32,000 bases of DNA from Alkanindiges illinoisensis DSM 15370 (GCF_000619845.1 NZ_JHUX01000003.1:1030064-1062063); one strand, 5' to 3'. Shown: positions 3,328 through 30,548, counted from the first letter of the stretch. A program made the numbers and translations. Notes: generated by a model not told the origin, from the sequence alone.

Positions 3328-6171
3328 ATGAATAGCATCGTATCCAAACCAATTACAGTACATCAAACATTGGATACTGCTCAAAGCACGCATACCACCT
3401 GCCCGTATTGCGGTGTGGGCTGCGGCGTGGAAGTCAGAAAAACCAAAAATAGCCTGACCCACGACCATCAGGTTAATGGCATTGCCAGCCATCCAGCCAA
3501 TCAGGGTCGCTTATGTGTTAAAGGTAGCAGCCTGGCTGAAACCATTGGCACCAAAAGACGTTTATTGTTTCCACAGTTTCAGGCCAACGGCCAAACTGAA
3601 CAGGTGTTATGGTCGCAAGCACTGGATAAAATTGCCACTACCTTTAAAGCAACCATTGAGCAGCATGGCGCAGATAGCGTGGCTTTTTACGTATCGGGCC
3701 AGCTACTGACTGAAGACTATTATGTGGCCAACAAGTTTGTAAAAGGTTTTCTGGGCACCGCCAATATCGACACCAATTCACGCCTGTGCATGTCCTCAGC
3801 CGTTGCTGGACACAAGCGCGCTTTTGGTGAAGATATTGTGCCCGGCTGCTACGAGGACTTTGAACTGGCCGATATGATTGTGCTGGTGGGTTCTAATACC
3901 GCATGGTGCCATCCGGTGCTATTCCAGCGCATTGCCAAAGCCAAGGAAAGTAACCCTAATCTATGCGTGGTGGTGATTGATCCACGCCATACCGCTACCT
4001 GTGATATTGCAGATATTCACTTGCCCCTATTGTCTGGCACCGACGTTGCCCTGTTTAACGGATTATTGCACTGGCTTCATCAGCATGAAGCACAGGATCA
4101 CCAGTTTGTAACTGCACATACACAAGGCCTGTCAGACGCTCTTAAGCAAGCTGGCGAGCATCGCGATACCAGAGCGCTGGCAGAGCTTTGTGGTGTGCAA
4201 TTACAAAGCCTTGAGGCTTTTTTTGACAAATTTGCTAAAACTGAAAAAGTCATTACCCTGTTTTCCATGGGCGTTAACCAGTCCAGCCAGGGTACTGACA
4301 AAGTCAACAGTATTATCAACTGTCACCTTTATACCGGACGCATTGGCAAACCCGGTATGGGGCCTTTTTCCATGACTGGCCAGCCCAATGCGATGGGTGG
4401 CCGTGAAGTGGGTGGTTTGGCCAATATGCTGGCAGCACACATGGAACTCAATAATCCGGTGCAGCGTGACCGGGTGCAGCGCTTCTGGCAAAGTCCGCTG
4501 ATTGCCTCTGAAAATGGTCTTAAAGCGGTTGAGCTGTTTGAAGCGGTAGAAGCAGGCCGTATTAAAGCCATCTGGATCATGGCCACTAATCCGGTGGTCA
4601 GTTTGCCCAATGCTGACCAGGTAAAGCGTGCCCTCTCCAACTGTGATTTTGTGGTGGTGTCTGATATTACTGCCAAAACTGACACCACGGCGTATGCAGA
4701 TGTGCTACTGCCCGCACTGGGCTGGGGCGAAAAAGATGGTACTGTTACCAATTCAGAGCGCTGTATTTCACGTCAGCGTGCATTTTTAAATCCTCCCGGC
4801 GAAGCCATGCCGGACTGGTGGGCCATTAGTCAGGTGGCAAAACGCATGGGATTTGGGGCCGCATTTGATTATCATCATCCGTCAGAAATTTTTGATGAAC
4901 ATGCCCGGCTTTCAGCCTTTGAAAATGTGAGCAGCGATCCAGAAACGCATGGCGTTTCCGCTGCGCAAGGCGAGAACTTTGCTCGAGCAGTGGCTGATCA
5001 AAAATCCACCACAAATTTTGATTTTCGCTACTTTAATCTCAAGGGCTTATGTGGCTTAAGCAAGCCCGCTTATGATGCTTTGCCGCCCCTACAATGGCCT
5101 GTATTGACGCCTTATCAGGGCACTAGCCGGGTATTGACCAATAACCGTTTTTCCCATCCAGATGGCAAGGCCCGCTTTATTAGCGTTAAGTATGAACCAC
5201 CGCGCAATAAGGCCAGCCGTGATTACCCGCTTGCCTTAAATTCCGGGCGTATCCGCGACCAGTGGCATACCATGACGCGCACAGGTCTGGCACCAACGCT
5301 GGGCTCACATATTCCAGAACCTTTTATTGACATGCACCCCAACGATGCCCTGCTGTTTGGCATCAAGCAAAATGAACTGGCACGCCTGCACTCGCAATGG
5401 GGAACACTGGTGGCACGGGTGCAATGCTCCGGCAATATGAGACGTGGGCAGGTGTTTGTTCCCATACACTGGACAGCGCAAACGGCTTCGGATGCTCGGG
5501 TGGGCGCGCTGGTCAATCCGGTGGTTGACCCCATCTCTGGCGAGCCTGAATTCAAGCACACACCGGTTCGCATTGAGCCATTTCATGTGCAATGGCAAGG
5601 TGTGGCCTATAGCCGCTATGCGCTTAACCTCGAACAGGTAGCTTGGTGGACACACATTCAAACACAGGCTGCATCGCGTTATGAACTGGCTGGCCGGCAA
5701 AAAATCAATACAGTTTCCGAACATAGCAAAGCACTACTGCTCAGCCATCCGGCACTGGCCGAAATGGTACACAACAATCAAGCGGACTGGCTAGAATACA
5801 GTGATCACAGCAGCGGCATTTATCATGCAGCCATTATGGTAGACAGCCAGATTCAGGCTTGCATTTATATTGCCCCGCGTGAACTATTGCCCAACCGGGA
5901 ATGGATTGCCAGCCTGTTTGTCAAATCTCGCCTCAGCAGTCGTGACCGTATGGCAATTCTGGCTGGTGCACCGTTAGGTAGCACCAATGATGCCGGGCCG
6001 CTGGTCTGCTCCTGCTTTAAAGTGGGCAAAAATACCATTTTAAATGCCATTCGGGAAAAAGGCCTGACCACCCCCAAAGAAGTAACTGCCTGTGTCAAAG
6101 CAGGTGGTAATTGTGGATCCTGTGTGCCAGAGATTCGCACGTTAATTGCTACCTGTCTGGTGGAATCCTAA
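3328..6171 (+). CDS. nasA: Assimilatory nitrate reductase catalytic subunit (molybdopterin/bis-MGD oxidoreductase) with a C-terminal BFD-like 2Fe-2S domain
   Basis: N-terminal 4Fe-4S motif CPYCGVGCGVEV...C. Long molybdopterin oxidoreductase body. C-terminal CSCFKVGKNTI...AGGNCGSCVPEI. Upstream AAGGAA is a plausible RBS. Confidence 0.93.
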   Translation: MNSIVSKPITVHQTLDTAQSTHTTCPYCGVGCGVEVRKTKNSLTHDHQVNGIASHPANQGRLCVKGSSLAETIGTKRRLLFPQFQANGQTEQVLWSQALDKIATTFKATIEQHGADSVAFYVSGQLLTEDYYVANKFVKGFLGTANIDTNSRLCMSSAVAGHKRAFGEDIVPGCYEDFELADMIVLVGSNTAWCHPVLFQRIAKAKESNPNLCVVVIDPRHTATCDIADIHLPLLSGTDVALFNGLLHWLHQHEAQDHQFVTAHTQGLSDALKQAGEHRDTRALAELCGVQLQSLEAFFDKFAKTEKVITLFSMGVNQSSQGTDKVNSIINCHLYTGRIGKPGMGPFSMTGQPNAMGGREVGGLANMLAAHMELNNPVQRDRVQRFWQSPLIASENGLKAVELFEAVEAGRIKAIWIMATNPVVSLPNADQVKRALSNCDFVVVSDITAKTDTTAYADVLLPALGWGEKDGTVTNSERCISRQRAFLNPPGEAMPDWWAISQVAKRMGFGAAFDYHHPSEIFDEHARLSAFENVSSDPETHGVSAAQGENFARAVADQKSTTNFDFRYFNLKGLCGLSKPAYDALPPLQWPVLTPYQGTSRVLTNNRFSHPDGKARFISVKYEPPRNKASRDYPLALNSGRIRDQWHTMTRTGLAPTLGSHIPEPFIDMHPNDALLFGIKQNELARLHSQWGTLVARVQCSGNMRRGQVFVPIHWTAQTASDARVGALVNPVVDPISGEPEFKHTPVRIEPFHVQWQGVAYSRYALNLEQVAWWTHIQTQAASRYELAGRQKINTVSEHSKALLLSHPALAEMVHNNQADWLEYSDHSSGIYHAAIMVDSQIQACIYIAPRELLPNREWIASLFVKSRLSSRDRMAILAGAPLGSTNDAGPLVCSCFKVGKNTILNAIREKGLTTPKEVTACVKAGGNCGSCVPEIRTLIATCLVES

Positions 6172-12618: not shown

Positions 12619-13653
12619 ATGAGACAAACCTTTTTAGCCGTATTGTCTTTATGCGCTATAGCGGTCTTACTGACTGGCTGTAGCGGAGACATCGTCATCT
12701 TTAACTCAAAGGGACAAATCGGAATTGAGCAGCGCGACCTAATCATCATTTCTTTTGTCTTGATGCTACTGGTTGTGATTCCTGCCATTTTCATGACGTT
12801 TTACTTTGGCTGGAAATACCGCCAGGGTAATGGTTCTGCCGAGTATTTACCGAAATGGGCACATTCCACCAAGATTGAAATCGTGGTGTGGGGCGTACCT
12901 ATTTTAATCATCTGTGCGCTTGCCTATTTAGCAGGTACAAGATCATTTAGCCTAGATCCATACAAACCAATCACTGCTGAGAAAGTTGCCCAGTCGGTTC
13001 AAAATAATCCAGACCAGGCAATTGCAAATCAGGCTAAAAAACAGCCTGTTACTATTCAGGTGATTGCAGAGCAATGGAAGTGGGTGTTCATTTATCCGGA
13101 ACAGAACATTGCGACTGTCAATGAGATTGTTTTACCGGTAAATACCCCCATTAATTTCCGTATTACCTCCAATTCTGTAATGAACTCGTTCTTTATCCCG
13201 CAACTGGGTGGACAGGTTTATGCGATGGCAGGTATGCAAACCCAGCTTCACCTGATTGCTGATGAATTGAGTGATCGTGACGGTAAGCCTGGTATTGGTC
13301 CGGATGATGGTTATCGTGGTATATCGGCCAACTACAGTGGCTACGGTTTCTCCAATATGCGCTTTAGAGCTCACTCTGTAACTGATGCAGAGTTCAATGC
13401 CTGGGTCAATCAGGTAAAAGCCTCACCACAAACACTGGATATGGCCAAGCTTCATGCCTTAAGAGACGACCCGAAAAATCGTCCTCATCACCCGCATCCG
13501 GTGACCTACTTCTCTTCTGTAGAGCCTAACCTATTCAAAGTCGTTATAGATCAGTATATGGCCGCACAGTACAATCATACAGCGTCTCAAGCAAGCCATG
13601 AGAGTGGCCATGCTGCTGGTGAAGGCAGTCATACTGCTGTTGTAGAGGAATAA
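12619..13653 (+). CDS. cyoA: Cytochrome bo3 ubiquinol oxidase subunit II
   Basis: Lipoprotein signal LLTGCSG, two TM helices, cupredoxin-like domain (WKWVFIYPEQNIATVNE...). GAGG RBS upstream. First gene of a cyoABCDE order. Confidence 0.93.
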   Translation: MRQTFLAVLSLCAIAVLLTGCSGDIVIFNSKGQIGIEQRDLIIISFVLMLLVVIPAIFMTFYFGWKYRQGNGSAEYLPKWAHSTKIEIVVWGVPILIICALAYLAGTRSFSLDPYKPITAEKVAQSVQNNPDQAIANQAKKQPVTIQVIAEQWKWVFIYPEQNIATVNEIVLPVNTPINFRITSNSVMNSFFIPQLGGQVYAMAGMQTQLHLIADELSDRDGKPGIGPDDGYRGISANYSGYGFSNMRFRAHSVTDAEFNAWVNQVKASPQTLDMAKLHALRDDPKNRPHHPHPVTYFSSVEPNLFKVVIDQYMAAQYNHTASQASHESGHAAGEGSHTAVVEE

Positions 13654-13656
13654 AAC

Positions 13657-15642
13657 ATGTTGTTAGGAAGGTTAAACTTTGAGGCAATACCTCACGATCC
13701 CATCGTGCAGGTCACAGTTGCCGGTATGATTCTTGGTGGGCTATTGCTGCTCGCGGCCATTACCTACTTTAAAAAGTGGAATTATCTCTGGTCTGAATGG
13801 TTTACCACAGTAGACCATAAAAAGATCGGTATCATGTATGTCATCGTGTCGATGATCATGCTGCTGCGCGGTTTCTCCGATGCCATCATGATGCGTCTGC
13901 AACAGGTGCTGGCAGCCGGTGGTGCCGAAGGTTACCTGCATCCGGAACACTATGACCAGATTTTCACTGCTCATGGGGTGATCATGATTTTCTTCGTGGC
14001 CATGGGTCTGGTGGTTGGCCTCATGAACATCGTAGTGCCTTTACAAATTGGCGCACGTGACGTTGCATTCCCACTATTAAACTCTGTCAGCTTCTGGCTA
14101 TTTGCAGTCAGTGCCGCATTGGTGATGATGTCACTGGTACTGGGTGAGTTTGCAGCAACTGGCTGGCTGGCTTATCCTCCGCTGTCGGGCATTGAGTATA
14201 GTCCGGGTGTCGGGGTTGATTACTATATCTGGTCGTTGCAGATTTCGGGTTTGGGTACCCTGCTGACTGGTGTGAACTTCTTCGTAACTATCATTAAAAT
14301 GCGTGCCCCTGGCATGACTTTAATGAAAATGCCGATTTTCACCTGGACTGCGCTGGTTACTGTAATCCTGATTATTGCTGTGTTCCCGATTTTAACCGGT
14401 ACTCTGGCAATGCTAACCGTTGACCGCCTGTTTGGTATGCATTTCTTTACCAATGAAGCTGGCGGTAGCCCAATGCTTTACGTCAACCTGATCTGGACCT
14501 GGGGTCACCCTGAAGTATACATTCTGGTATTGCCTGCTTTTGGTGCATTCTCAGAGATCGTTGCAACATTCAGCCGCAAATACCTGTTTGGTTATAACAC
14601 CATGGTCTACGCAACCGTAGCCATTGGCTTGCTGTCCTATGTAGTTTGGGTTCACCATTTCTTTACCATGGGTGCCGGTGCCAACGTTAACGCGTTCTTT
14701 GGTATCATGACCATGGTTATTGCAATTCCAACTGGCGTGAAGATTTTCAGCTGGTTGTTCACCATGTATAAAGGTCGTATCCGTTTTACCACGCCAATGC
14801 TGTGGACAATGGGCTTTTTGGTAACCTTCTCTATTGGTGGTATGACTGGTGTTCTGCTTGCAATTCCACCAGCAGACTTTGTTGTTCACAATTCCCTGTT
14901 CCTGATTGCACACTTCCATAACGTCATTATCGGTGGTGTGGTATTTGGTATGTTTGCTGCCCTGACCTACTGGTTCCCAAAAATGTTTGGTTTCACACTA
15001 AACGAATACTGGGGCCGTCTGTCATTCTGGTTCTGGGTCATTGGTTTCTATCTGGCATTCATGCCGCTATACGTGCTGGGCTTTATGGGTATGACCCGTC
15101 GCCTGAACACCTATGACAATCCTGACTGGGAACCCTACCTGTATGTCGCTTTTGTCGGTGCAGTATTTGTATTTATTGGTATTCTGTGCCAGTTAATCCA
15201 GATTGCCGTAAGCTTCCGTGATCGCAAGAAAAATGCAGACTTAACAGGCGACGTATGGGATGGTCGTACCCTGGAATGGGGAACTACTTCTCCTGCCCCG
15301 TTCTATAACTTTGCTCATATCCCCCATGCTGATGAAATTGATGCATTCTGGGTAGCCAAAGAAAAAGGCGTTGCTTACCAGCGTCCTGCCAAGTATGAAG
15401 ACATCCACATGCCGACAAACCGTGCTGCTGGTGTTCTGATTGGTGGCCTGCTGTTTGTATTTGGCTTTGCCATGACTTGGTATATCTGGTGGCTTGCAAT
15501 TGCTTCACTGGTTGGTTCAATTATCGTGTTCATTGCAAGTTCATTTACCAAGAAAGTGGACTACTATGTACCCGCTGCTGAAGTTGAGCGTATTGAGAAT
15601 GAGCGCTTTCATAAACTTGAGCAGTTTCAAAAGCAGGGCTAA
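13657..15642 (+). CDS. cyoB: Cytochrome bo3 ubiquinol oxidase subunit I (heme-copper oxidase)
   Basis: 661 aa polytopic protein with heme-copper oxidase signatures ([28 protein letters not shown]). Confidence 0.96.
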
Positions 15643-15645
15643 GAC

Positions 15646-16263
15646 ATGTCTGAAGTAATTCATCATCAAGACGAGCACGGTCACGATCATCATCACCATG
15701 ATGATACCGACATGACAGTGTTCGGTTTTTGGACCTATATCATGAGTGACTTGATCTTGTTCTCAAGTCTCTTCATTGCATATGCTGTATTACATACTCA
15801 CTTTGCAAATGGGCCCAGCTCTCAGGAAGTTTTTGGTGAATCCTTAAGCTTCGTTATGGTTGAAACCTTCCTTCTGCTGGTCAGTAGCTTTACCTTTGGT
15901 ATGGCTGTACTAGCCCGTTACAAGGAAAAAGTAGGTCAGGTACTAGGCTGGCTGGCGGTTACCTTTCTTCTGGGTGCCGGCTTTATCGGCATGGAAGTCT
16001 ATGAATTCCATCACCTGATTTCTATCGGTCACGGCCCAAATGTAAGTGCGTTCCTAAGCTCCTACTTCAGTTTGGTGGGAACTCACGGTATTCACGTTAC
16101 CTGCGGTCTGATCTGGATGATCGTTCTAATGATCCAGATTGCCAAAAATGGGCTTACCCTGCCAAATACCCGCCGTCTGGCTTGCTTAAGCCTGTTCTGG
16201 CACTTCCTGGACATTGTCTGGATTTGCGTATTTAGTGTGGTTTACTTGTTAGGAGCAATATAA
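15646..16263 (+). CDS. cyoC: Cytochrome bo3 ubiquinol oxidase subunit III
   Basis: 205 aa, five predicted TM helices, position after cyo[11 protein letters not shown] motif typical of subunit III. Confidence 0.92.
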
Positions 16264-16610
16264 TGGGTCATCACGCACATACCGATGCCGCTGGTGCTAG
16301 CCACGGCAGTACCAAGCAGTATGTTATTGGTCTGATTATTTCCATTGTTCTGACTATTATTCCGTTCTGGATGGTCATGCAGAATGTGGAGCAGCCCGGT
16401 AGCTTTGGACGTGGCCCGCTGGTATGGACCATTGTTGTCACTGCTATTGCACAGGTGCTGGTACAGTTAGTGTTCTTCCTGCATTTGAACTCATCTTCTG
16501 AGCAGCGCTGGAACCTGATTGCATTTGTTTATACTGTTCTGACAATTGCAATCCTGATCATTGGCTCAATCTGGGTCATGGATTACCTGCACTATTTCAT
16601 GATGTCCTGA
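16263..16610 (+). CDS. cyoD: Cytochrome bo3 ubiquinol oxidase subunit IV
   Basis: 115 aa, three TM helices. The ATG overlaps the cyoC stop (TAATG). Position in the operon. Confidence 0.88.
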   Translation: MGHHAHTDAAGASHGSTKQYVIGLIISIVLTIIPFWMVMQNVEQPGSFGRGPLVWTIVVTAIAQVLVQLVFFLHLNSSSEQRWNLIAFVYTVLTIAILIIGSIWVMDYLHYFMMS

Positions 16611-16622
16611 TTGGCTTGATTA

Positions 16623-17507
16623 ATGATTAAGAAGTTTATTTACTTAACCAAGCCTGGAATTATTTTTGGTAATTTCATTTCGGTCATGGGGGGCTTTTTT
16701 CTGGCCTCTCAAGGCAACATCGATTTATGGCTTCTACTGGTTACTTTGCTTGGAACCTCACTCGTTGTTGCTTCTGGTTGTGTAGTAAACAATATCATTG
16801 ATCAGGATATTGACGTCAAAATGGAGCGAACCCGGAACCGCGCACTTGTAAAAAAGTCGGTTTCAAATACAGCGGCATTTATTTATGCCGCTGTACTGGG
16901 AATTTTCGGGTTTGCTCTGCTTTACTGCTTTACTAACTTACTGGCGGTTGCATTTGCTGCCTTTGGTTTTTTTGTCTACGTTGTTCTATATAGCCTTTAT
17001 CTAAAGCGCCATTCCATTCATCAGACACTGGTCGGTAGCCTTTCAGGTGCCTGTCCTCCGGTTATTGGTTATTGTGCTGTTGCCAACCAGTTTGATGCTG
17101 GTGCACTCATTCTGTTTATTCTGTTTTGTATCTGGCAAATGCCACATTCTTTTGGTATCGCCATCTTCCGCTTAAATGATTATATATCTGCGCGTATTCC
17201 GGTATTACCGGCCAAAAAAGGCATCTATATTACCAAGCTGCAATCAGCCGTTTATGTCTTATTGTTTACATTAACAGGCAGCCTTCTGTATGTTTTCCAT
17301 TATGTAGGTCTAATTTATCTGGTGGTATTTGCTGGCTTGTGTGGTTACTGGTTATATCTGGCTGTAAGTGGTTTTAAAGCCATTGATGACCGTGTTTGGG
17401 CCCGTCGTTTCTTCTTATTTTCAGTCATCCTGATTACTGTTTTTAGTGTGCTGATTTCTGTTGATTATGAGCCGCAGCCTAGTTACGGTTTTATTTTTAA
17501 GCTATAA
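16623..17507 (+). CDS. cyoE: Protoheme IX farnesyltransferase (heme O synthase)
   Basis: UbiA-family polytopic protein with NNIIDQDIDVKMERTRNR (the Asp-rich prenyltransferase motif). Last gene of the cyo operon. Confidence 0.92.
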   Translation: MIKKFIYLTKPGIIFGNFISVMGGFFLASQGNIDLWLLLVTLLGTSLVVASGCVVNNIIDQDIDVKMERTRNRALVKKSVSNTAAFIYAAVLGIFGFALLYCFTNLLAVAFAAFGFFVYVVLYSLYLKRHSIHQTLVGSLSGACPPVIGYCAVANQFDAGALILFILFCIWQMPHSFGIAIFRLNDYISARIPVLPAKKGIYITKLQSAVYVLLFTLTGSLLYVFHYVGLIYLVVFAGLCGYWLYLAVSGFKAIDDRVWARRFFLFSVILITVFSVLISVDYEPQPSYGFIFKL

Positions 17508-17612: not shown

Positions 17613-19787
17613 ATGACGCGATTTTTTACTGCTCGCCTGCACTTTAGAAGTGCAATTTTATTTGGCCTTTTTTTTCTGCTTCCTGTCAGCAGTTATGCCA
17701 GCTTTGATAGCTATTGTACGCCAACCTGGTCATTGGAATTACAATCCTATAATCGGTGCAGCAATCTGCCTATGTTAAGCCCGGCTAATGATAATCAAAC
17801 CAATATGCGACTATTGATGGCGGATATGCGACTGGCAACCATCGCACCGCCCAAGCCTCCTGTCTCTAGCTGGACAGATGAGTACAGTGCAGTGCCTTTC
17901 GCTGCTGAAGACTTTAAAAATGCTATCAGCAATACCAGTCCTTCACAAAGAAAAAAGTCATCATCGCAAAAATCTAGTGATCGCTATATTGCCGAGGAGC
18001 GCTGTCAAAGTAGTGCGTCAGGTATGCGGGCATTCATTGAGCAAGTCAATGCTGATCGTGGTTTAAAGCCTGCTGAAAAATTACTATTGATAAAACAGCG
18101 GCAGGCCATTTTACCTTCCTGCGATAAAGCACTGGAATATATCAAGGTGATTCCAGAATGGAGTTCACTGGTCAAGCAATATATTTCCTATATCAACGGT
18201 TCAGTAGCTTTTTATAATAGCGACTACCCCACTGCACAAAAAATCTATACGGCCCTGAATTCAGTGCCCTCAGCATGGCTGAGTGAAACTGCAACTTATA
18301 TGCTGATTAGAACGTCGGTGAATCACGCGTATAGCAGTGGGCTGGATGAATATGGTTTTCAGTCGCTGGCTAAAATTGATAAAAATGCCATTGCAACCTC
18401 ATTTAATGCAATCGGTACTTATTTTAAGCGTTATCCGCAGGGTCAGTATGCTGCTTCAGCACGCGGCCTATTACGCCGTCTATATTGGATGGGCGGCCAG
18501 CAACAGCAGCTTATTGATGAATTTTTATGGCAGTTTAATCATTTACAGAAATCACAATTTAATCTGGAAATGCAGTGGGTGCCAGAAGAAATTGACCAGC
18601 GAATTTTTGAGAGCAAACTATTTAACCCTAGTAATCTCAAAGATCCATTTTTCTTAGCCACTTATGATCTCATGCATATGCGTGAAAGCAGTGCAGAAAA
18701 ATATAAGCCCTTAAGCTGGACTGCCCTGCAAGCGCAAAAAGACTATTTTAAGACTGCACCCGAGTTGTATCGATATTTACAGGCAGCTCACTTATTTTTG
18801 CTTCAGAAAAAACCACAACAGGCATTGGATTATTTACCTAAAGGGAATCCACCCGATCGTCTAAACTATTTGCAGCTTAGCCAGTTTGTTTTAAAAGGCC
18901 GAATTCTGGAGCATCTGAGCAAGTCTGATGAAGCCAATACACTCTGGACAGTATTGCTGGGTTCTGCCAAGTCACCTTATCAGCCCCAGTTGGTAGAGCT
19001 TGCGTTAGCATTGAATTTGCAAAATGGTCAGGATATTAATGCATTTTTTAAAACGGATAGTTTGATTAAAGATCCGGCTATCCGTGCTGTTATGATCAGG
19101 CAGGCTGCCAATGCTGAATTACTTGATTCAATCATTAATTCCTCTGCTACTTCGGCACAGGAAAAGCTCCTTGCCAGTTTTACCTTATTGCATAAAAGCC
19201 TGAATCATCAGCAATATAAGCTTTTTGTTGATTCGCTAAAATATTTGCCCAAAGATGCGTTCAATTACAAAGGCTATGACAGTGAAACTGAAGCCCTAAA
19301 GAATCAGCCGAAGTTTGAATTATTTTTATGGAAAGGCACTGCAATTAATGATCAGTTAAGTTGCCCATCTTTAATCAATATCAGTAAAACCCTGACAACC
19401 CAGCCACAGGATGAAGTTGCATTGCTTTGTCTAGGTGAATTTGTACGCCTTAGCAGCTTTAAAAGCGGTGAATACAATCTTGAACCCGAAATGCCAAATC
19501 AAAACACATCAAATCGCCTAGACTGGGCTTTGGGTAACGGACAGATACCTTTTGCCCAAGCCACTTTCTCACGCGGTGAGGTATATAAAAATATCATCCA
19601 GAATAGTGCCAATGACCACTTAAAAGCTTACGCCTTATACCGCGCCATCAACTGTTATGCTCCAGGCGGTATCAACGATTGCGCTGGAGTAGATGTTGAA
19701 AAGAGTCTGCGCAAGAAATGGTTTGAGCAACTCAAGCAAAACTATCCTGATAGTCAATGGGCCAAGGAGCTAACTTATTATTGGTAA
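17613..19787 (+). CDS. Secreted 724-aa protein of unknown function, predominantly helical/TPR-like, 8 cysteines
   Basis: Signal peptide AILFGLFFLLPVSSYA|S. Eight Cys arranged in N- and C-terminal groups. Segments such as YPQGQYAASARGLLRRLYW and YPDSQWAKE resemble TPR/BamD/YbgF-type helical repeats. No catalytic motif recognised. Confidence 0.7.
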   Translation: MTRFFTARLHFRSAILFGLFFLLPVSSYASFDSYCTPTWSLELQSYNRCSNLPMLSPANDNQTNMRLLMADMRLATIAPPKPPVSSWTDEYSAVPFAAEDFKNAISNTSPSQRKKSSSQKSSDRYIAEERCQSSASGMRAFIEQVNADRGLKPAEKLLLIKQRQAILPSCDKALEYIKVIPEWSSLVKQYISYINGSVAFYNSDYPTAQKIYTALNSVPSAWLSETATYMLIRTSVNHAYSSGLDEYGFQSLAKIDKNAIATSFNAIGTYFKRYPQGQYAASARGLLRRLYWMGGQQQQLIDEFLWQFNHLQKSQFNLEMQWVPEEIDQRIFESKLFNPSNLKDPFFLATYDLMHMRESSAEKYKPLSWTALQAQKDYFKTAPELYRYLQAAHLFLLQKKPQQALDYLPKGNPPDRLNYLQLSQFVLKGRILEHLSKSDEANTLWTVLLGSAKSPYQPQLVELALALNLQNGQDINAFFKTDSLIKDPAIRAVMIRQAANAELLDSIINSSATSAQEKLLASFTLLHKSLNHQQYKLFVDSLKYLPKDAFNYKGYDSETEALKNQPKFELFLWKGTAINDQLSCPSLINISKTLTTQPQDEVALLCLGEFVRLSSFKSGEYNLEPEMPNQNTSNRLDWALGNGQIPFAQATFSRGEVYKNIIQNSANDHLKAYALYRAINCYAPGGINDCAGVDVEKSLRKKWFEQLKQNYPDSQWAKELTYYW

Positions 19788-24583: not shown

Positions 24584-24588
24584 ATGAA
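24580..24588 (+). repeat. Left copy of the 9-bp direct repeat TTAAATGAA flanking the AT-rich orphan gene
   Basis: An identical 9-mer occurs at 24580-24588 and 25060-25068, exactly 480 bp apart. That equals the ORF length including its stop. Confidence 0.8.
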
Positions 24589-25063
24589 GCTTATTCCTTA
24601 TTTTGTATATAAAAAAATATCTGATAGACGCAGAGATGAAATTATTCAGTTTCTTAAGTCTAACAGTACAGCTGATGATTACTCATTATTTACTCATCAA
24701 AAAACAAATAATCTTCTTATTTCAAGAATGATAACAGATAATAATTTTATCGTTCGGCGAAATATAAATTATAGAAATTCTTTTTTACCTATAGCACTTG
24801 GCAGAATTATAGAGATCAATAACAAAACCTATATTAATATCTCAGTAAGAATGCATTGGCTTATAATTATCTTCTCAACAATATGGTTTACCCCTTTATT
24901 CTTTGCTTTTATTGCACTTTTATATATTGATACTGTTTCTATAGAATTTATATTAGGTGTATTTGGCTTAATTATTGGGGGATATTTACTTATACAAGTA
25001 TCGTTCTGGTTTGAAGCTCAAAAATTAATTAAAATATTTGATAAAATTTTTTCTGATAATTAA
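24584..25063 (+). CDS. Hypothetical 159-aa protein with a soluble N-terminal half and two C-terminal TM helices; strongly AT-rich orphan gene
   Basis: The ATG abuts the alr stop (TAAATG). N/K/I-rich composition. TM segments WLIIIFSTIWFTPLFFAFIALLYI and FILGVFGLIIGGYLLIQVSFWF. I counted 15/60 G+C in both nt 24601-24660 and 24781-24840, against 32/60 in alr nt 24301-24360. Confidence 0.6.
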   Translation: MKLIPYFVYKKISDRRRDEIIQFLKSNSTADDYSLFTHQKTNNLLISRMITDNNFIVRRNINYRNSFLPIALGRIIEINNKTYINISVRMHWLIIIFSTIWFTPLFFAFIALLYIDTVSIEFILGVFGLIIGGYLLIQVSFWFEAQKLIKIFDKIFSDN

Positions 25064-25068
25064 ATGAA
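25060..25068 (+). repeat. Right copy of the 9-bp direct repeat TTAAATGAA
   Basis: See the left copy. This one spans the orphan gene stop codon TAA (25061-25063). Confidence 0.8.
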
Positions 25069-25080
25069 TTTCAACTACAA

Positions 25081-25115
25081 AGCTAGTGCCTGGCAAGAGC
25101 TTTAGGCACATAGCT
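25081..25115. terminator. Hairpin between convergent genes (possible bidirectional terminator)
   Basis: AGCTAGTGCCT (25081-25091) pairs with AGGCAC-A-TAGCT (25104-25115). That gives 11 bp with one bulged A and a 12-nt loop. T-rich sequence follows on both strands but there is no clean U-tract. Confidence 0.4.
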
Positions 25116-25153
25116 TGTTATTAAAATTGGATAACCAAAATCAATAATTTAGG

Positions 25154-25891
25154 TCAACGCCAATAATCATCCGGTGGCTGTGGCAGATTGCTCATGGTAC
25201 TACGCAAACCATCTGACCATTGCTGACGAATCATAGAAAAATACGGGTCATTATCGTACAGGCGGCGCCCTTCCGGTAAATTAAACTGATTGGCACGATA
25301 TACAATCAGATCCAGCGGTGTTCCGACAGACACGTTGGAACGAATGGTGGAATCAAATGAAATCAGCGCACAACGCAAGGCTTTATCCAGTGGCGTATGA
25401 TAATTTAATGCACGATCCAGAATCGGCTTACCATACTTACTTTCACCAATCTGAAAATATGGCGTGTCCATAGTGGCTGCAATAAAGTTGCCTTGCGGAT
25501 AAATACTATAAAGCTCTGGCGGCTCGCCCTTGATTTGCCCACCAATTAAAATGGAACTGGAAAAATCATATTCATTGCTTTGTGCCAGACCAGTGACATG
25601 CTGGATTTCATGCGCCATGCACTCTCCAACAATTTCAGCAGCTTCAAACAGGGTACTGACATTGTGCAGATTACGCTCGGCATTGGATTGAATCTGATGC
25701 TGTAACCGGGTAATTACCGCTTGCGAGGTTGCAAGATTCCCGGCTGTTTGCAGCACAATGATTCGTTCACCCCTGACCCCAAAACGGTGCAGCTTGCGAA
25801 ATATTGCAATATGGTCTACCCCGGCATTAGTACGTGAATCACTGACAAATACCAGCCCTTCCTCAAGTCGCATTGCTACACAATAGGTCAT
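25154..25891 (-). CDS. Anbu (ancestral beta-subunit) proteasome-like Ntn hydrolase
   Basis: MTYCVAMRLEEGLVFVSDSRTNAG places Thr directly after the initiator Met, as expected for an N-terminal nucleophile. Size is ~245 aa. It is the last gene of the ATP-grasp/alpha-E/transglutaminase operon that defines Anbu loci. Confidence 0.88.
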   Translation of the reverse strand: MTYCVAMRLEEGLVFVSDSRTNAGVDHIAIFRKLHRFGVRGERIIVLQTAGNLATSQAVITRLQHQIQSNAERNLHNVSTLFEAAEIVGECMAHEIQHVTGLAQSNEYDFSSSILIGGQIKGEPPELYSIYPQGNFIAATMDTPYFQIGESKYGKPILDRALNYHTPLDKALRCALISFDSTIRSNVSVGTPLDLIVYRANQFNLPEGRRLYDNDPYFSMIRQQWSDGLRSTMSNLPQPPDDYWR

Positions 25892-25975
25892 AACTCTTCC
25901 TGTATAAATTTGAGGAGTAAACTAACAAATTACTCTCTACTTTTCCAGTTGAACCCATCTCGTTAAAAAAGCGCC

Positions 25976-26752
25976 TTAACTGGCCAGTACTTGCACCAGT
26001 GCTCGCATGGACTCCTCGCCGCCGCCTTGTCGTGTTCCACGCACGGGTGCAGCATCAAAATAATCACGGCCTACGGCTAAATATACATGATGATCAAGCG
26101 AGAAAAGTTGGTTGGACGTATCAAAACAGTACCATTTGCCATTGAGATATACTTCAGCCCACGCATGGGTTGATAAATGCGTGCTGTCACTGCTGTGCAA
26201 ATAACCTGATACATAGCGTGCAGGCAACTTAAGGTGGCGCGTACACGCCAAAAACACGTGTGTATGATCCTGACACACCCCTTGCTCCAGATCAAACGCT
26301 TCAGCCGCTGTAGTCAGGACATTGGTTGACATCGGGGTATAAGGCATACGCTCTAAAATAGCAGCCGATAAATCAATTAAGGCTGATCGGTCAGTACCTT
26401 TGCCGTACTGCGCTATAAAATCCAGCAAAGGTTCATGACAGGTTGTTGTTTCAGTGGCATGAGTAAAAAACATGGGTGACAAACGGTTGTCTTCAATCGC
26501 TTCAGTAGGATTAATCTCAACCTCGCCCTGCGCCATGATCAGCAATTCCTGATGCGGCTGGTTCACAGTCAGGCTGGTCCAGATGTTACCAAAGCCATCC
26601 TGCTGCGTGCATTTAATGCCCGGTGCAGCCAGTTGCCATGCATGTACAATCTGATGTCCAAAGGTTTGTGGTGTTAATCGAATATATTGATTACTTCTTT
26701 TGACTGCACTTTCATAGTTATAGTGCGTTTGATGATTAATCACCAGATTCAT
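25976..26752 (-). CDS. Transglutaminase-like cysteine protease/ligase family protein
   Basis: Candidate Cys-His-Asp triad: GVCQDHTHVF, STHAWAEVY and WYCFDTSN. The start overlaps the alpha-E stop (ATGA, 26749-26752). Confidence 0.88.
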   Translation of the reverse strand: MNLVINHQTHYNYESAVKRSNQYIRLTPQTFGHQIVHAWQLAAPGIKCTQQDGFGNIWTSLTVNQPHQELLIMAQGEVEINPTEAIEDNRLSPMFFTHATETTTCHEPLLDFIAQYGKGTDRSALIDLSAAILERMPYTPMSTNVLTTAAEAFDLEQGVCQDHTHVFLACTRHLKLPARYVSGYLHSSDSTHLSTHAWAEVYLNGKWYCFDTSNQLFSLDHHVYLAVGRDYFDAAPVRGTRQGGGEESMRALVQVLAS

Positions 26753-27351
26753 GGACCCTCCTCAAACAGTGCCTGCATTTGGTCACAGAAACTGTAGAGC
26801 GCAGTAATATCTTTGTTTTGCTGCAATTCGACCCATGGTGCTTCCAGTGCAGTCCAGCCAATCGGTGATAGCATTTCTACTACAGTACGCAAGTCCTGAA
26901 TGGCCATATCGGGAGAACGCTTAAGCCGTAACGCATTGTCAATCTGCTCAATGCACTGGCCCAGTTGCCAGAACAGGCGCACGTTTTCATCTTCATCCAG
27001 CACAGCTTCGCAGCACCCAGAAATCAGTTCACAGACCTTGTTTTTAAATTGCTGCTTGGGATTAGTCAAAATATTGAGTGACTCAAATACTTCCTGACTA
27101 ATGACCCCACGCACACACTGCATGTTTTCACGCACAGCACTAAGGTTTGCAATAATGGAGGCAGGCTGGTTAGGATCCTGTAGCAAGGCATTTAGGGTCT
27201 TGGCATCCCATGCTGACAGGGAAAAAGCATGGGAAAACTGCAAGGCTTCCTGATCATCGGTAAATGGTAATAAGCGGCACAGGCCATCAATCCGGATCAT
27301 GTAGCGACCCAGCCAATACAGGTTGGAAGCCGTGGACAATAGTAAAATCAT
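26749..27351 (-). CDS. Alpha-E domain protein (DUF403-type), short 200-aa version
   Basis: The N-terminus LLSTASNLYWLGRYMIRIDG matches the alpha-E signature (SxxLYWxGRYxER-like). The start overlaps the ATP-grasp stop (ATGA, 27348-27351). Confidence 0.8.
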   Translation of the reverse strand: MILLLSTASNLYWLGRYMIRIDGLCRLLPFTDDQEALQFSHAFSLSAWDAKTLNALLQDPNQPASIIANLSAVRENMQCVRGVISQEVFESLNILTNPKQQFKNKVCELISGCCEAVLDEDENVRLFWQLGQCIEQIDNALRLKRSPDMAIQDLRTVVEMLSPIGWTALEAPWVELQQNKDITALYSFCDQMQALFEEGP

Positions 27352-28907
27352 GCAATGCCTCCTGCTGCATCATGAGTCATTACGGGCAAGGTGGTGTCCT
27401 CCAGATCAATAATCCATGTGTCTTTTGTGCCACCACCCTGTGATGAGTTAACAACCAGGGAACCCTCTGTTAATGCAACACGGGTTAAGCCACCTGGCGT
27501 AATTTTGACCTGCCCGGGACTGCTCAGCACAAAGGGACGCAAATCAATATGACGTGGGGCAATGCCTTCTTCTACCAGTGTCGGACATACGGATAAAGCC
27601 AAAGTAGGTTGGGCAATATACGCAGCAGGGTCATCGGTTAGACGACGGCGAAAATCCTCAAGTTCAGCCTGTGATGCTTTAGGGCCAATCAGCATGCCGT
27701 AGCCACCAGAGCCTTGTGCTTCTTTGACCACCAGCTCTGATAAATGTGCCAGCACGTAATTTAAATCATCTTTTTTACGGCACTGCCATGTAGGAACATT
27801 ATGCAGGATGGGCTTTTCACCCAGATAAAATTCAATCATGTCGCCCACATAAGGATAAATGGACTTATCATCAGCAACGCCAGTACCCGGAGCATTGGCA
27901 ATCATCACTTTTCCAGCGCGGTAAGCAGCCATCAGGCCAGGTACACCCAGCATGCTGTCCGGTCTAAATGCCAGTGGATCGAGGAACGGGTCATCCAGAC
28001 GGCGATAAATCATGTCCACGCGTACTTTGCCACGCACTGATTTCAAGAAAACTTCATTACCTTCAACAAACAGGTCATAGCCATTAACCAGTGGCACGCC
28101 CATTTCACGCGCCAAAAAGGCATGCTCATAATAGGCGCTATTAAAGCGGCCCGGTGTTAGTACCACAATCGTTGGGTTTGCAACCAGTGAGTTGGCAATC
28201 AGGGTTTGTTTGAGTAAGACAGGATAATCATGGACAGGTGAAATTTTATGGCTGGCAAAGATTTCTGGCATTAATTTCTGGCTAATGGAACGGCCTTCCA
28301 GCATATAGGATACCCCGGACGGCGTTCGCAGGTTATCTTCCAGCACATAATACTGGCCATCACCATGACGGATCAGGTCAATGCCACTAATCTGGGCATA
28401 GACCTTCCCCGGCAGGTCTACATTGAGCATCCAGGGCTGGAAGCTGTCGTGGGCAATTACCTGATCGGCTGGCACAATACCCGCGCGAATAATATCCTGA
28501 TGATGATAAACATCATGCAAAAAGGCATTTAAGGCACGGATACGCTGATCGCACCCGGCTTCAAGAATTTTCCATTCTTTTTGTTCAATAATGCGTGGAA
28601 TAATATCAAAAGGAATGACGCGCTCCGTGCCATCTGCATCACTGTATACGGTAAAGGTAATGCCTTTCTTGTAAAAGTGTGAAGTGGCCTGCCCATTGAG
28701 CTTGTTGAGTTGCTCAATGCTTTGCTGGTTAAGCCATTGAAAAAAGTTATGATAACTTTGTCTGATATCACCGTCATCAAGCGACATTTCATTAAAGAAA
28801 CGCGGTAACAAGGTTTGGGCAATATCATAGGGTAAAGCACCACTTGATAATGTATCACTAGCCAAATTGATTGATGTTTCAGAAATCTCACGGGAGATTG
28901 CAGTCAT
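27348..28907 (-). CDS. Circularly permuted ATP-grasp type-2 protein (DUF404/DUF407-type amidoligase)
   Basis: About 519 aa. Its position and motifs (VVLTPG..NSAYYEH.FLA..MG, ANAPGTGVADDK, VVKEAQGSGGYGM) are typical of the family found with alpha-E and transglutaminase. I prefer the start at Met34 of the listed ORF (ATG at 28907-28905), because GAAGGG lies ~8 nt upstream and the first 33 listed residues look non-coding. Confidence 0.85.
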   Translation of the reverse strand: MTAISREISETSINLASDTLSSGALPYDIAQTLLPRFFNEMSLDDGDIRQSYHNFFQWLNQQSIEQLNKLNGQATSHFYKKGITFTVYSDADGTERVIPFDIIPRIIEQKEWKILEAGCDQRIRALNAFLHDVYHHQDIIRAGIVPADQVIAHDSFQPWMLNVDLPGKVYAQISGIDLIRHGDGQYYVLEDNLRTPSGVSYMLEGRSISQKLMPEIFASHKISPVHDYPVLLKQTLIANSLVANPTIVVLTPGRFNSAYYEHAFLAREMGVPLVNGYDLFVEGNEVFLKSVRGKVRVDMIYRRLDDPFLDPLAFRPDSMLGVPGLMAAYRAGKVMIANAPGTGVADDKSIYPYVGDMIEFYLGEKPILHNVPTWQCRKKDDLNYVLAHLSELVVKEAQGSGGYGMLIGPKASQAELEDFRRRLTDDPAAYIAQPTLALSVCPTLVEEGIAPRHIDLRPFVLSSPGQVKITPGGLTRVALTEGSLVVNSSQGGGTKDTWIIDLEDTTLPVMTHDAAGGIA

Positions 28908-29402
28908 GATCGAGCCCTTCTCAAACTTGTAAATCATGTTATGCAAGGCGAATACCAAGTTAGTGAGAAAGCATTTGAAAAATACCAAACACACTGGATT
29001 GCACAAAAAACATGCAGCGCCTAAAACTTATTAATAAACACGATTCCCTTGTGGTGCTATCATGCCCAAAGCGTTTAACCACAGTCATTAGCGTTATTTA
29101 GAGCGAATTGTTTTTAGTGTAACAGCACGTATTTTTTGCAACAAATTTAGCAATTTGCTGTAAGTGCTTTTACTGAACAATTACATGGAGATTTCGTGCT
29201 GCACTAAAAATGAACAAGCCTGCTTTATAAACTGGCAACCGGATAGCAAACTGTGTTCAAAAGACTCATGGATAGCCTTAAAGTCTAAGCAAAAAATAAT
29301 TTGGTCCGACTGGCTAATAAAGTGTGCAATTTTTTGCTATGGTTTAATGAATTCAATGACTGTTGTTAAAACAATGAAAATGCAGGATGGAGATACTGGG
29401 GA

Positions 29403-30548
29403 ATGAGTCTGCCAAAAAAAGCCCAAGCTACAACGCAACCGACGACAACGAAATCAGTGACAGCAAAACCGGAAGCAAAGAAAACCGCCAAATCTGTAGC
29501 GGGCAAAACTGCTGGCACAACCTCCAATGAAAAGGAAACAGTTAATAGTCTATATCGGCAGTGGCAGATTTTATCCAAACTTCCTACCGGCAAATGGATT
29601 GGTACACGCCAGCTTCAGGAACAGTTACAGCGCGAAGGGATTGATATCAGCATCCGTACCATTCAGCGTGATTTGAACCAGATTGCCAGTCGCTTTCCCA
29701 TTGAAAGTAACAAGGAAACGCCGCAAGGCTGGCGCTGGCAGGAAGATGCGCCTATTCAAAGTTTGCCACACATGAATAGCTCGCAAGCAGTGACCTTTAT
29801 GATGGTGGAAGATCACCTCAAGCATTTGCTGCCCCCCAGCCTGCTGGATGAAATGCGACCCTGGTTTGACCTTGCACGCCGCAGCTTGTCCTCTGAACAT
29901 AACAATGTACGCCAGTGGATCAACCGGGTACGGATTGTACCGGCCACCCAGCCGCTGATTCCTCCGGCAGTAGACGCCAGAGCCCAGCAAAGTATTTATG
30001 AAGCCCTGTTGCAGGATCGGCAATTGCGTGTCACTTATAAGGCACGGGCGCATCAGGGTGAGGACACGGTTTATACCTTAAATCCGCTGGCACTGGTACA
30101 ACGTGGTGCCATTATTTACCTGATCTGCACGCGACATGACAAACCGGATGTACGCCAGTTTGCCCTGCACCGGTTTAGCCATGCTACGGTACTGGAAAGC
30201 CGTTCCATGCATCCGGTTAATTTTAATATTGATGAATATCTGGCCGCTGGTGCACTGGGCTTTACTTCGTATAACCAGCAAAGTGTAGAGCCTATTTTTA
30301 TTGAACTGCTGTTTCACGCCAAAGCTGGACAAACCTTTTTTGAGTCACGTTTAAGTGAAGACCAAACTGTAGAAAAACTGGAAAGTGGTGAAGTACGGGT
30401 AACTGCTACTGTGCCATTTACCGCACAACTGGTATGGTGGTTACGCGCCTATGGCCGGATGCTGGTTGACATTAAGCCAGAGTTTCTGGCTGAACAGGTG
30501 CATGAAACTGCATTTTTGCCCAAGCCTGAACCTGTAACTGATGTTTAA
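29403..30548 (+). CDS. WYL-domain transcriptional regulator (wHTH - WYL - C-terminal WCX-like domain) with a ~48-aa Lys/Thr/Ala-rich N-terminal tail
   Basis: HTH: YRQWQILSKLPTGKWIGTRQLQEQLQREGIDISIRTIQRDLNQI. WYL domain: LRVTYKARAHQGEDTVYTLNPLALVQRGAIIYLICTRHDKPDVRQFALHRF. Divergent from the Anbu operon. The only in-frame alternative start I see is the GTG at 29457. Confidence 0.85.
   Translation: MSLPKKAQATTQPTTTKSVTAKPEAKKTAKSVAGKTAGTTSNEKETVNSLYRQWQILSKLPTGKWIGTRQLQEQLQREGIDISIRTIQRDLNQIASRFPIESNKETPQGWRWQEDAPIQSLPHMNSSQAVTFMMVEDHLKHLLPPSLLDEMRPWFDLARRSLSSEHNNVRQWINRVRIVPATQPLIPPAVDARAQQSIYEALLQDRQLRVTYKARAHQGEDTVYTLNPLALVQRGAIIYLICTRHDKPDVRQFALHRFSHATVLESRSMHPVNFNIDEYLAAGALGFTSYNQQSVEPIFIELLFHAKAGQTFFESRLSEDQTVEKLESGEVRVTATVPFTAQLVWWLRAYGRMLVDIKPEFLAEQVHETAFLPKPEPVTDV

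Follow-up and report, generated by a model that had tools for sequence, protein, structure and literature searches.

The proteasome-related protein Anbu is encoded together with three partners, and the operons described to date share the gene order ATP-grasp, alpha-E, transglutaminase-like and Anbu (PMC6376114, PMC3235984). Published Anbu proteins form split-ring or helical dodecameric assemblies and lack peptidase activity (PMC5666114, PMC6376114), and the ATP-grasp protein of Yersinia bercovieri releases phosphate from ATP (PMC6376114). What Anbu and its three partners do has been a question since 2008-2009. According to PMC8665760 (2021), PMC5666114 and PMC6376114 no function is known, and no paper defining substrates or function was found in the searchable literature, in agreement with a preliminary description of the present DNA, which held that substrates and function had not been established. 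We examined an operon of this type in a 32,000-nucleotide (nt) stretch, NZ_JHUX01000003.1:1030064-1062063 (the window; coordinates are positions in it). Positions 25154-28907 on the minus strand almost certainly represent an Anbu operon; judged from its reading frames, it appears intact, is predicted to be expressed and belongs to a subtype with a truncated alpha-E. The operon is an ordinary one, of an already described and widespread kind, and public annotation of its proteins exists ("alpha-E domain-containing protein", "proteasome-type protease").

Examination of open reading frames (ORFs) in the window revealed four consecutive minus-strand ORFs within 25154-28907 in the published Anbu order, which bears out the four co-directional genes and the boundaries first proposed for them. 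The operon and its control regions were resolved into the following features (aa, amino acids):

27348-28907, minus strand: circularly permuted ATP-grasp amide ligase (COG2308), 519 aa from the ATG at 28907; Pfam and PDB 3n6x.
26749-27351, minus strand: short-form alpha-E (COG2307), 200 aa, its start overlapping the ATP-grasp stop; Pfam Alpha-E.
25976-26752, minus strand: transglutaminase-like cysteine hydrolase (COG1305), 258 aa, its start overlapping the alpha-E stop; Pfam.
25892-25975, minus strand: intercistronic gap of 84 nt from the transglutaminase-like stop to the Anbu ATG; read from the sequence.
25154-25891, minus strand: Anbu, a proteasome-beta-like N-terminal nucleophile (Ntn) hydrolase, 245 aa; phmmer against the PDB.
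28942-28957, minus strand: sigma-54-type -24/-12 motif TGGTATTCGCCTTGCA, 50 nt upstream of the ATP-grasp ATG; pattern match.
28958-29190, minus strand: conserved upstream block, candidate enhancer or operator; near-invariance in four Alkanindiges sequences.
25070-25125, strand undefined: stable hairpin between Anbu and a convergent 159-aa ORF; RNA folding.
29403-30548, plus strand: divergent WYL-WCX regulator, its association with the operon uncertain; Pfam WYL and WCX.

The first three genes are tied by start/stop overlaps: ATGA in GCATGATT (27351-27348) joins the ATP-grasp stop to the alpha-E start, and ATGA in CCATGAAT (26752-26749) joins the alpha-E stop to the transglutaminase-like start. 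Both overlaps, earlier read as translational coupling, and the 84-nt gap before the last gene were found again on reading the sequence. Within this gap AGGAAGAG lies shortly before the Anbu ATG, and Anbu has a ribosome-binding site of its own. In every operon compared Anbu is set apart from the gene before it by 17-281 nt, whereas the first three genes mostly overlap. The longest ORF of the ATP-grasp gene begins further upstream, at TTG 29006. The ATG at 28907 is the supported start: this ATG is kept in relatives, the two candidate starts flank the sigma-54 motif at 28957-28942, and the N-terminal 35 aa of the ATP-grasp protein are also conserved.

The window, which stems from an Alkanindiges species (Moraxellaceae), showed 89% identity to Alkanindiges illinoisensis and, over the whole region, about 83-87% by segment to A. 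hydrocarboniclasticus. All four genes were syntenic in relatives and under strong purifying selection, with ratios of nonsynonymous to synonymous substitution rates (dN/dS) of 0-0.07. Loci for comparison came from Acinetobacter (L007, L008), two further lineages (L009-L012), Aquirhabdus (L013), Fluviicoccus keumensis (L014) and Stutzerimonas (L015). The four genes were present in L002-L004, L006, L007-L013 and L015, with the same order in L007-L013 and L015, and only L014 was without the transglutaminase-like gene; the co-conservation expected of related genomes was seen in Alkanindiges, Acinetobacter, Aquirhabdus, Stutzerimonas and L009-L012. A 1.3-kb contig labelled as a Cellvibrionaceae metagenome-assembled genome (L001, JAGKXA010000501.1) was 94% identical to the alpha-E/transglutaminase region of the window; it probably belongs to Alkanindiges and was assigned to the wrong genome during binning.

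Searches of Pfam and the PDB upheld all four protein assignments: ATP-grasp, alpha-E, transglutaminase and Anbu. The ATP-grasp protein matched the full CP_ATPgrasp_2 profile (positions 1-374 of 374; E-value (E) 6.3e-157, 522.8 bits, cut-off 32) and PDB entry 3n6x (E 1.2e-186), and its dN/dS against relatives was about 0.05. In the transglutaminase-like protein, Pfam identified both domains of the superfamily (PF01841 with PF08379), Bact_transglu_N (E 4.6e-19, residues 5-79) and Transglut_core (E 3.9e-17, residues 117-211), and PDB entry 3isr was matched at E 2.4e-14. The Cys-His-Asp triad thought plausible in this protein was located at Cys160/His196/Asp211, which align with the 3isr motifs and are invariant in six operons. 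In NCBIfam, neither the ATP-grasp protein nor alpha-E nor Anbu could be assigned to a specific family. No PADLOC defence-system model matched any of the four, the neighbouring WYL protein matching generic WYL models only, and Rfam returned nothing at E <= 1 in 24900-29500.

The product of 25154-25891 was placed in the proteasome beta/Anbu family, as had been proposed, both by Pfam (Proteasome, E 2.4e-09) and by solved Anbu structures. P. aeruginosa Anbu, 5lox, was matched by phmmer at E 3.2e-90 (query 2-243 on chain 1-240), and 5nyw, 5nyj and 5nyf at E 5e-86 to 3e-66; besides 5lox, four further Anbu sequences were matched, making nine PDB entries in all. The likeness to these characterised proteins spans the full length and takes in the C-terminal helical extension. 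The protein begins MTYCVAM, followed by VSDSRT and FRKL: Thr stands right after Met with no propeptide, and Asp17 and Lys32 (mature numbering) are present. Thr1, Asp17 and Lys32 were conserved in seven operons, save Ser for Thr in L009, and the Thr nucleophile earlier read from this start is thereby confirmed. Methionine aminopeptidase acts where the residue at position 2 is small. Because of this preference, and because the mature 5lox chain starts at Thr, we infer that the initiator Met is removed. The catalytic residues checked, the transglutaminase-like triad and Thr1/Asp17/Lys32 of Anbu, are all intact. The Anbu orthologue of L009 (7658-8401) starts MSYC, giving Ser instead of Thr as the predicted nucleophile.

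The alpha-E protein is indeed shorter than its family at 200 aa, and its match to Pfam Alpha-E (PF04168; E 7.7e-20, 72.2 bits, cut-off 20.8) covered only profile positions 5-166 of 294. The preliminary description regarded this as a local peculiarity, which it is not: comparison of lengths across orthologous loci revealed a conserved subfamily of about 200 aa in Alkanindiges, Acinetobacter, Aquirhabdus and further lineages, with a four-gene operon at every locus examined. A word-indexed search returned 27 alpha-E homologues of 197-201 aa, with identity down to 32%. An exhaustive HMMER search gave 36 clusters (50% identity) at E <= 1e-10, mostly full-length proteins of about 200 aa; canonical alpha-E of 300-340 aa was reached only at E 1e-8 to 1e-3 and through its N-terminal part alone. 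Acinetobacter and Alkanindiges species were among the carriers found by profile search, and dozens of clusters, some with as little as 26% identity, all kept a length of 197-206 aa. The dN/dS of alpha-E was 0-0.03, with 100% aa identity to A. illinoisensis at 95.5% nucleotide identity. Alpha-E was also the fastest-evolving component of the operon, showing 24% identity to Stutzerimonas compared to 51-65% for the other three proteins. By sequence comparison, then, the short alpha-E is a conserved subfamily and not the result of damage. No paper describing the subtype was found in the literature search.

Alignment with hhalign placed residues 1-174 of the short alpha-E on columns 16-224 of 345 of the canonical form (probability 99.5%). 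The short protein corresponds to the N-terminal two-thirds of the canonical form of about 310 aa, with several internal deletions and a short subfamily-specific tail, and is without the C-terminal ~110 aa that include the nearly invariant FLLLD..FPRS region. Both ER motifs are altered across the short subfamily: RYxER, near the N-terminus, is replaced by RYxxR (here RYMIRID), with loss of Glu and retention of Arg, and LERAD, in the middle of the protein, by IExxD (here IEQID), with loss of Arg and retention of Glu and Asp. The protein passes the profile threshold but has neither the ER motifs nor the full ~300-aa architecture, and because the C-terminal region is absent we treat it as a truncated, divergent homologue and not as a canonical member. 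A tblastn search of the window with the canonical C-terminal domain found nothing, and no other part of the window codes for this domain. The AlphaFold2 model of the short form was compact, all-helical and self-contained (predicted local distance difference test (pLDDT) 93, predicted template modelling score 0.89), and that of the canonical form was also helical (pLDDT 93.5). Fold searches with the two models gave no PDB match at E <= 0.001, and a sequence search of the PDB with alpha-E gave chance matches only; alpha-E appears to have no solved structural relative. The subfamily shows that, as far as the sequences tell, the operon can fill its role in this lineage without the C-terminal ~110 aa of alpha-E and with a residue replaced in each ER motif.

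Compensation for the short alpha-E by the longer ATP-grasp protein (519 aa) was considered and rejected, because in the short-alpha-E operons L009 and L011 the ATP-grasp protein is no longer than usual (489 and 475 aa). Two proteins from short metagenomic contigs, P0064 (448 aa) and P0028 (345 aa), join the C-terminal part of ATP-grasp in frame to a short alpha-E. Either the fusions are genuine and would speak for a physical partnership, or they stem from indel errors at the ATGA junction.

Sigma-54 control of the operon is likely, given the position of the -24/-12 motif. The pattern TGGYAYN5TTGCW had two matches in the 32-kb window compared to 0.34 expected. Each of eight loci compared had a single match, in every case immediately upstream of the ATP-grasp gene, and a relaxed pattern gave TGGCGCGTACTTTGCA at -51 in Stutzerimonas and TGGCAAAGCTTTTGCA at -59 in Fluviicoccus. 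The motif was invariant in four Alkanindiges sequences and occupied the equivalent place in six independent lineages: Alkanindiges, Acinetobacter, Aquirhabdus, the L009 lineage, Fluviicoccus and Stutzerimonas. Nitrogen limitation strongly induces the operon in P. putida, where it ranks with the most induced genes (PMC3235984, note added in proof), a table in PMC7801951 assigns PP_2685-2688 to NtrB/NtrC control, and the promoters of these genes have been tried as nitrogen-starvation sensors (PMC8050072). In marine metagenomes the abundance of the operon's domains tracks that of urea-metabolism domains (PMC3597751). The operon is not mentioned in a nitrogen study of P. putida by random barcode transposon-site sequencing. 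The inducing condition, earlier described as not established, is therefore not wholly unknown: NtrC-dependent induction in P. putida has been published, and the sigma-54 motif in the window matches it.

The second sigma-54-like motif, TGGCACGCAGCTTGCT at 2838-2853 on the plus strand, falls within a Rieske/pyridine-nucleotide oxidoreductase (nitrite-reductase-like) gene and precedes an assimilatory nitrate reductase-like gene (3328-6171) by about 475 nt. It could have arisen by chance or could act as an internal promoter under nitrogen control.

The explanation that we favour, with moderate confidence in it as a whole, begins with transcription by sigma-54 and an enhancer-binding activator, which would most likely be NtrC under nitrogen limitation, as in P. 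putida. The ATP-grasp protein would activate a carboxylate as an acyl phosphate with ATP and join it to an amine, so that a peptide or protein acquires an (iso)peptide bond; alpha-E, its synthesis closely coupled to that of ATP-grasp, would be a partner or would provide specificity. Cleavage of such bonds or of the resulting peptides would fall to the Cys-His-Asp hydrolase and to Anbu, with its Thr1, and this ligate-then-cleave cycle would recycle nitrogen when nitrogen is scarce. The mechanism is tentative, and we consider it possible but not probable. We infer that ATP-grasp and alpha-E form the invariant core and that the two hydrolases are accessory, because the two core genes overlap or nearly so in most operons, because the pair is kept where the transglutaminase-like gene is lost (Fluviicoccus), and because in-frame ATP-grasp::alpha-E fusions occur (P0064, P0028).

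Several observations count against this explanation. The sigma-54 motif is a pattern match only, and is degenerate in L004 and absent in L011. A scan of 28908-29402 with TGCACCAnnnTGGTGCA found no convincing NtrC box: the best site, at 29016-29000, matched at 10 of 14 positions, with about 0.3 expected. The adjoining WYL regulator could be the real or an additional controller of the operon. Purified Anbu proteins did not act as peptidases on standard proteasome substrates, and a search for stable complexes between proteins of the operon detected none (PMC6376114, PMC5666114). Our literature search found no substrate, product or phenotype for any Anbu operon.

Tagging for degradation and small-molecule amide metabolism are both live rivals to the ligate-then-cleave proposal. 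The first resembles pupylation: ATP-grasp would mark target proteins with an amino acid or a peptide, Anbu would degrade the tagged proteins or remove the tag, and the transglutaminase-like enzyme would remove or cross-link tags. WYL-domain PafBC is encoded beside the Pup-proteasome genes, and the WYL regulator adjoining this operon resembles that arrangement. The co-encoding of one ligase with two hydrolases, and the intact state of every catalytic residue checked, fit such a system, which is also the proposal of Iyer et al. 2009 in the summaries given by PMC5666114 and PMC6376114. However, neither a tag gene nor a small conserved ORF lies beside the operon in any locus compared, there is no unfoldase, and Anbu is an open split ring that is inactive on peptides in vitro (PMC8665760, PMC6376114). 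Induction by nitrogen limitation also fits scavenging better than targeted regulation, and we regard protein tagging as unlikely.

Under small-molecule nitrogen scavenging, ATP-grasp would make an amide with a small amine or amino acid, and the transglutaminase-like and Anbu Ntn hydrolases would be amidases acting on small amides, not proteins. ATP-grasp is a relative of glutathione and glutathionylspermidine synthetases, and its closest solved structure, 3n6x, was deposited as a putative glutathionylspermidine synthase, although this name is a structural-genomics label and not a tested activity. The lack of peptidase activity in Anbu agrees with scavenging, other Ntn hydrolases being amidases or amidotransferases (PMC6376114), as do NtrC-dependent induction by nitrogen limitation and co-variation with urea-metabolism domains in metagenomes (PMC3597751). 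Against it, no conserved transporter or further catabolic enzyme was found beside the operon in the loci compared, and Anbu keeps a proteasome-like multi-subunit assembly (PMC5666114). We give this alternative a low probability.

Control by a different signal was considered from the region upstream of the operon. About 260 bp there were almost invariant among the four Alkanindiges sequences, with about one synonymous substitution per synonymous site (dS ~1) in the adjacent genes. The block contains a dyad, CAGCAAATT-N4-AATTTGTTG, at 29136-29163, and 28958-29190 is a candidate enhancer or operator region. Shared 8-mers between upstream regions of the lineages were mostly AT-rich chance matches; only Acinetobacter shared several with the window. 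The WYL-WCX gene (WYL, E 5.6e-14; WCX, E 4.8e-08) is separated from the operon by 495 nt of intergenic sequence. It was also found in Acinetobacter L007 and L008 (3172-4170 in L007), where the gene beyond it differs, and was absent from the operon loci of Aquirhabdus, Fluviicoccus, L009, L011 and Stutzerimonas. In Moraxellaceae the divergent WYL-WCX protein might control the operon through a ligand such as a nucleic-acid-derived signal, in which case the operon would belong to a stress response and not to nitrogen scavenging. Its divergent place in both Alkanindiges and Acinetobacter despite the change of gene beyond it, the near-invariant block with its dyad and the 8-mers shared by the two genera all favour such control. 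Its absence from the five other loci argues the other way; moreover, the alr-dnaB flank is syntenic as well, so the adjacency may be inherited gene order only, and it is the sigma-54 motif that is shared across lineages. We consider this reading as a whole highly unlikely.

A decaying alpha-E gene, or a truncation or frameshift artefact leaving the operon partly inactive, might be suspected from a protein a third shorter than the Pfam model with one residue replaced in each ER motif, but is for practical purposes refuted by the fixed length and purifying selection described above, together with the confident self-contained model, the intact ATGA overlaps on both sides of the gene and the lack of any C-terminal domain remnant in the window.

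At the other end of the operon, the hairpin at 25070-25125 had a folding energy of -22.5 kcal/mol (z-score -5.0; 0 of 200 shuffles folded as well) and is probably the operon 3' end. It was missed by a simple terminator scan because it has no clean T run. In simple consensus scans, sigma-70 and terminator matches were no commoner than in shuffled sequence. Directly after the alr stop, and convergent with Anbu, the plus-strand ORF at 24584-25063 encodes a hydrophobic protein of 159 aa (low GC, 37%) with no Pfam, NCBIfam or PADLOC match; the region does not align to A. hydrocarboniclasticus, and Acinetobacter has no such gene. Elsewhere in the window, a strong negative AT skew of -0.17 to -0.27 at 14-18 kb overlaps a cytochrome o ubiquinol oxidase-like cluster (COX2, COX1, COX3, UbiA-family; 12619-17507). 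As the skew coincides with this membrane-protein cluster, it is a codon-composition effect and not an anomaly. The 724-aa protein encoded at 17613-19787 on the plus strand has no Pfam domain and a full-length match to the NCBIfam PA5441 family (type IV pilus-related, E 4e-231).

The window gives leads on the function of the operon and no answer. A natural minimal alpha-E marks the dispensable parts of the protein and can guide mutagenesis and complex modelling. The sigma-54 motif, kept in position over six lineages, extends the link to nitrogen limitation beyond Pseudomonas and provides a condition under which to hunt for the substrate, and the same subtype occurs in Acinetobacter, where genetics is easy. 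A broader reading, which we find very doubtful, is that the Anbu system was pared to a minimal form in Moraxellaceae and a few other lineages (loss of the alpha-E C-terminal third and of a single residue in each ER motif, and of the transglutaminase-like gene in Fluviicoccus), with a divergent, ligand-sensing WYL-WCX regulator added to sigma-54 control in Alkanindiges and Acinetobacter. If true, this would narrow the functional core to ATP-grasp, Anbu and the N-terminal bundle of alpha-E. The operon would then also answer to a second signal other than nitrogen, in a loose parallel to WYL-type PafBC next to the proteasome of Actinobacteria, and Acinetobacter, being genetically tractable, would offer the best chance of finding the substrate.

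Compared with known systems, the truncated-alpha-E subtype shared with Acinetobacter is a modest variation on the Anbu operon and would not surprise a specialist. The operons of Pseudomonas (P. putida PP_2685-PP_2688; P. aeruginosa, source of Anbu 5lox) and Y. bercovieri have the same four genes in the same order. Between Stutzerimonas L015 and the window, Anbu was 65%, ATP-grasp 62% and the transglutaminase-like protein 51% identical. Pseudomonas-type operons share Thr1/Asp17/Lys32 and the Cys/His/Asp residues, and Stutzerimonas shares the upstream sigma-54 motif. The Pseudomonas-type alpha-E differs: it has about 316 aa compared to 200 in the window, with 24% identity over the N-terminal part, whereas the window protein is without the FPRS-containing C-terminal ~110 aa and has RYMIR for RYxER and IEQID for LERAD. 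The ATP-grasp protein of the window is about 45 aa longer than the Pseudomonas type, mostly at the N-terminus.

The Acinetobacter operon (e.g. CP094555.1) is of the same short-alpha-E subtype, with proteins of 515, 200, 259 and 244 aa. As in the window, it sits between a divergent WYL-WCX regulator and alr-dnaB, and it shares the sigma-54 motif, at -56. It is nevertheless deeply diverged (alpha-E 35% and Anbu 60% identical); its ATP-grasp and alpha-E genes are 22 nt apart, whereas those of the window overlap, and it has no counterpart of the 159-aa ORF between Anbu and alr. F. keumensis (L014, 3734-6723), also in the Moraxellaceae, has a three-gene Anbu operon with the sigma-54 motif and an Anbu 68% identical to that of the window. 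Its alpha-E, like the window's, is without the C-terminal domain and the ER residues. Unlike the window, it has no transglutaminase-like gene, and its alpha-E is intermediate at 245 aa, keeping internal segments lost from the 200-aa form.

The actinobacterial Pup-proteasome likewise encodes a proteasome-family hydrolase with an ATP-dependent amide ligase. The window operon, in contrast, has no gene for a Pup-like tag, an AAA+ unfoldase or an alpha subunit. The Pup ligase PafA is glutamine-synthetase-like and that of the window is an ATP-grasp protein, from a different family, and Anbu, unlike the Pup-proteasome, is an open split ring without demonstrated proteolysis (PMC8665760). The likeness to the Pup-proteasome is one of resemblance only, and not of membership.

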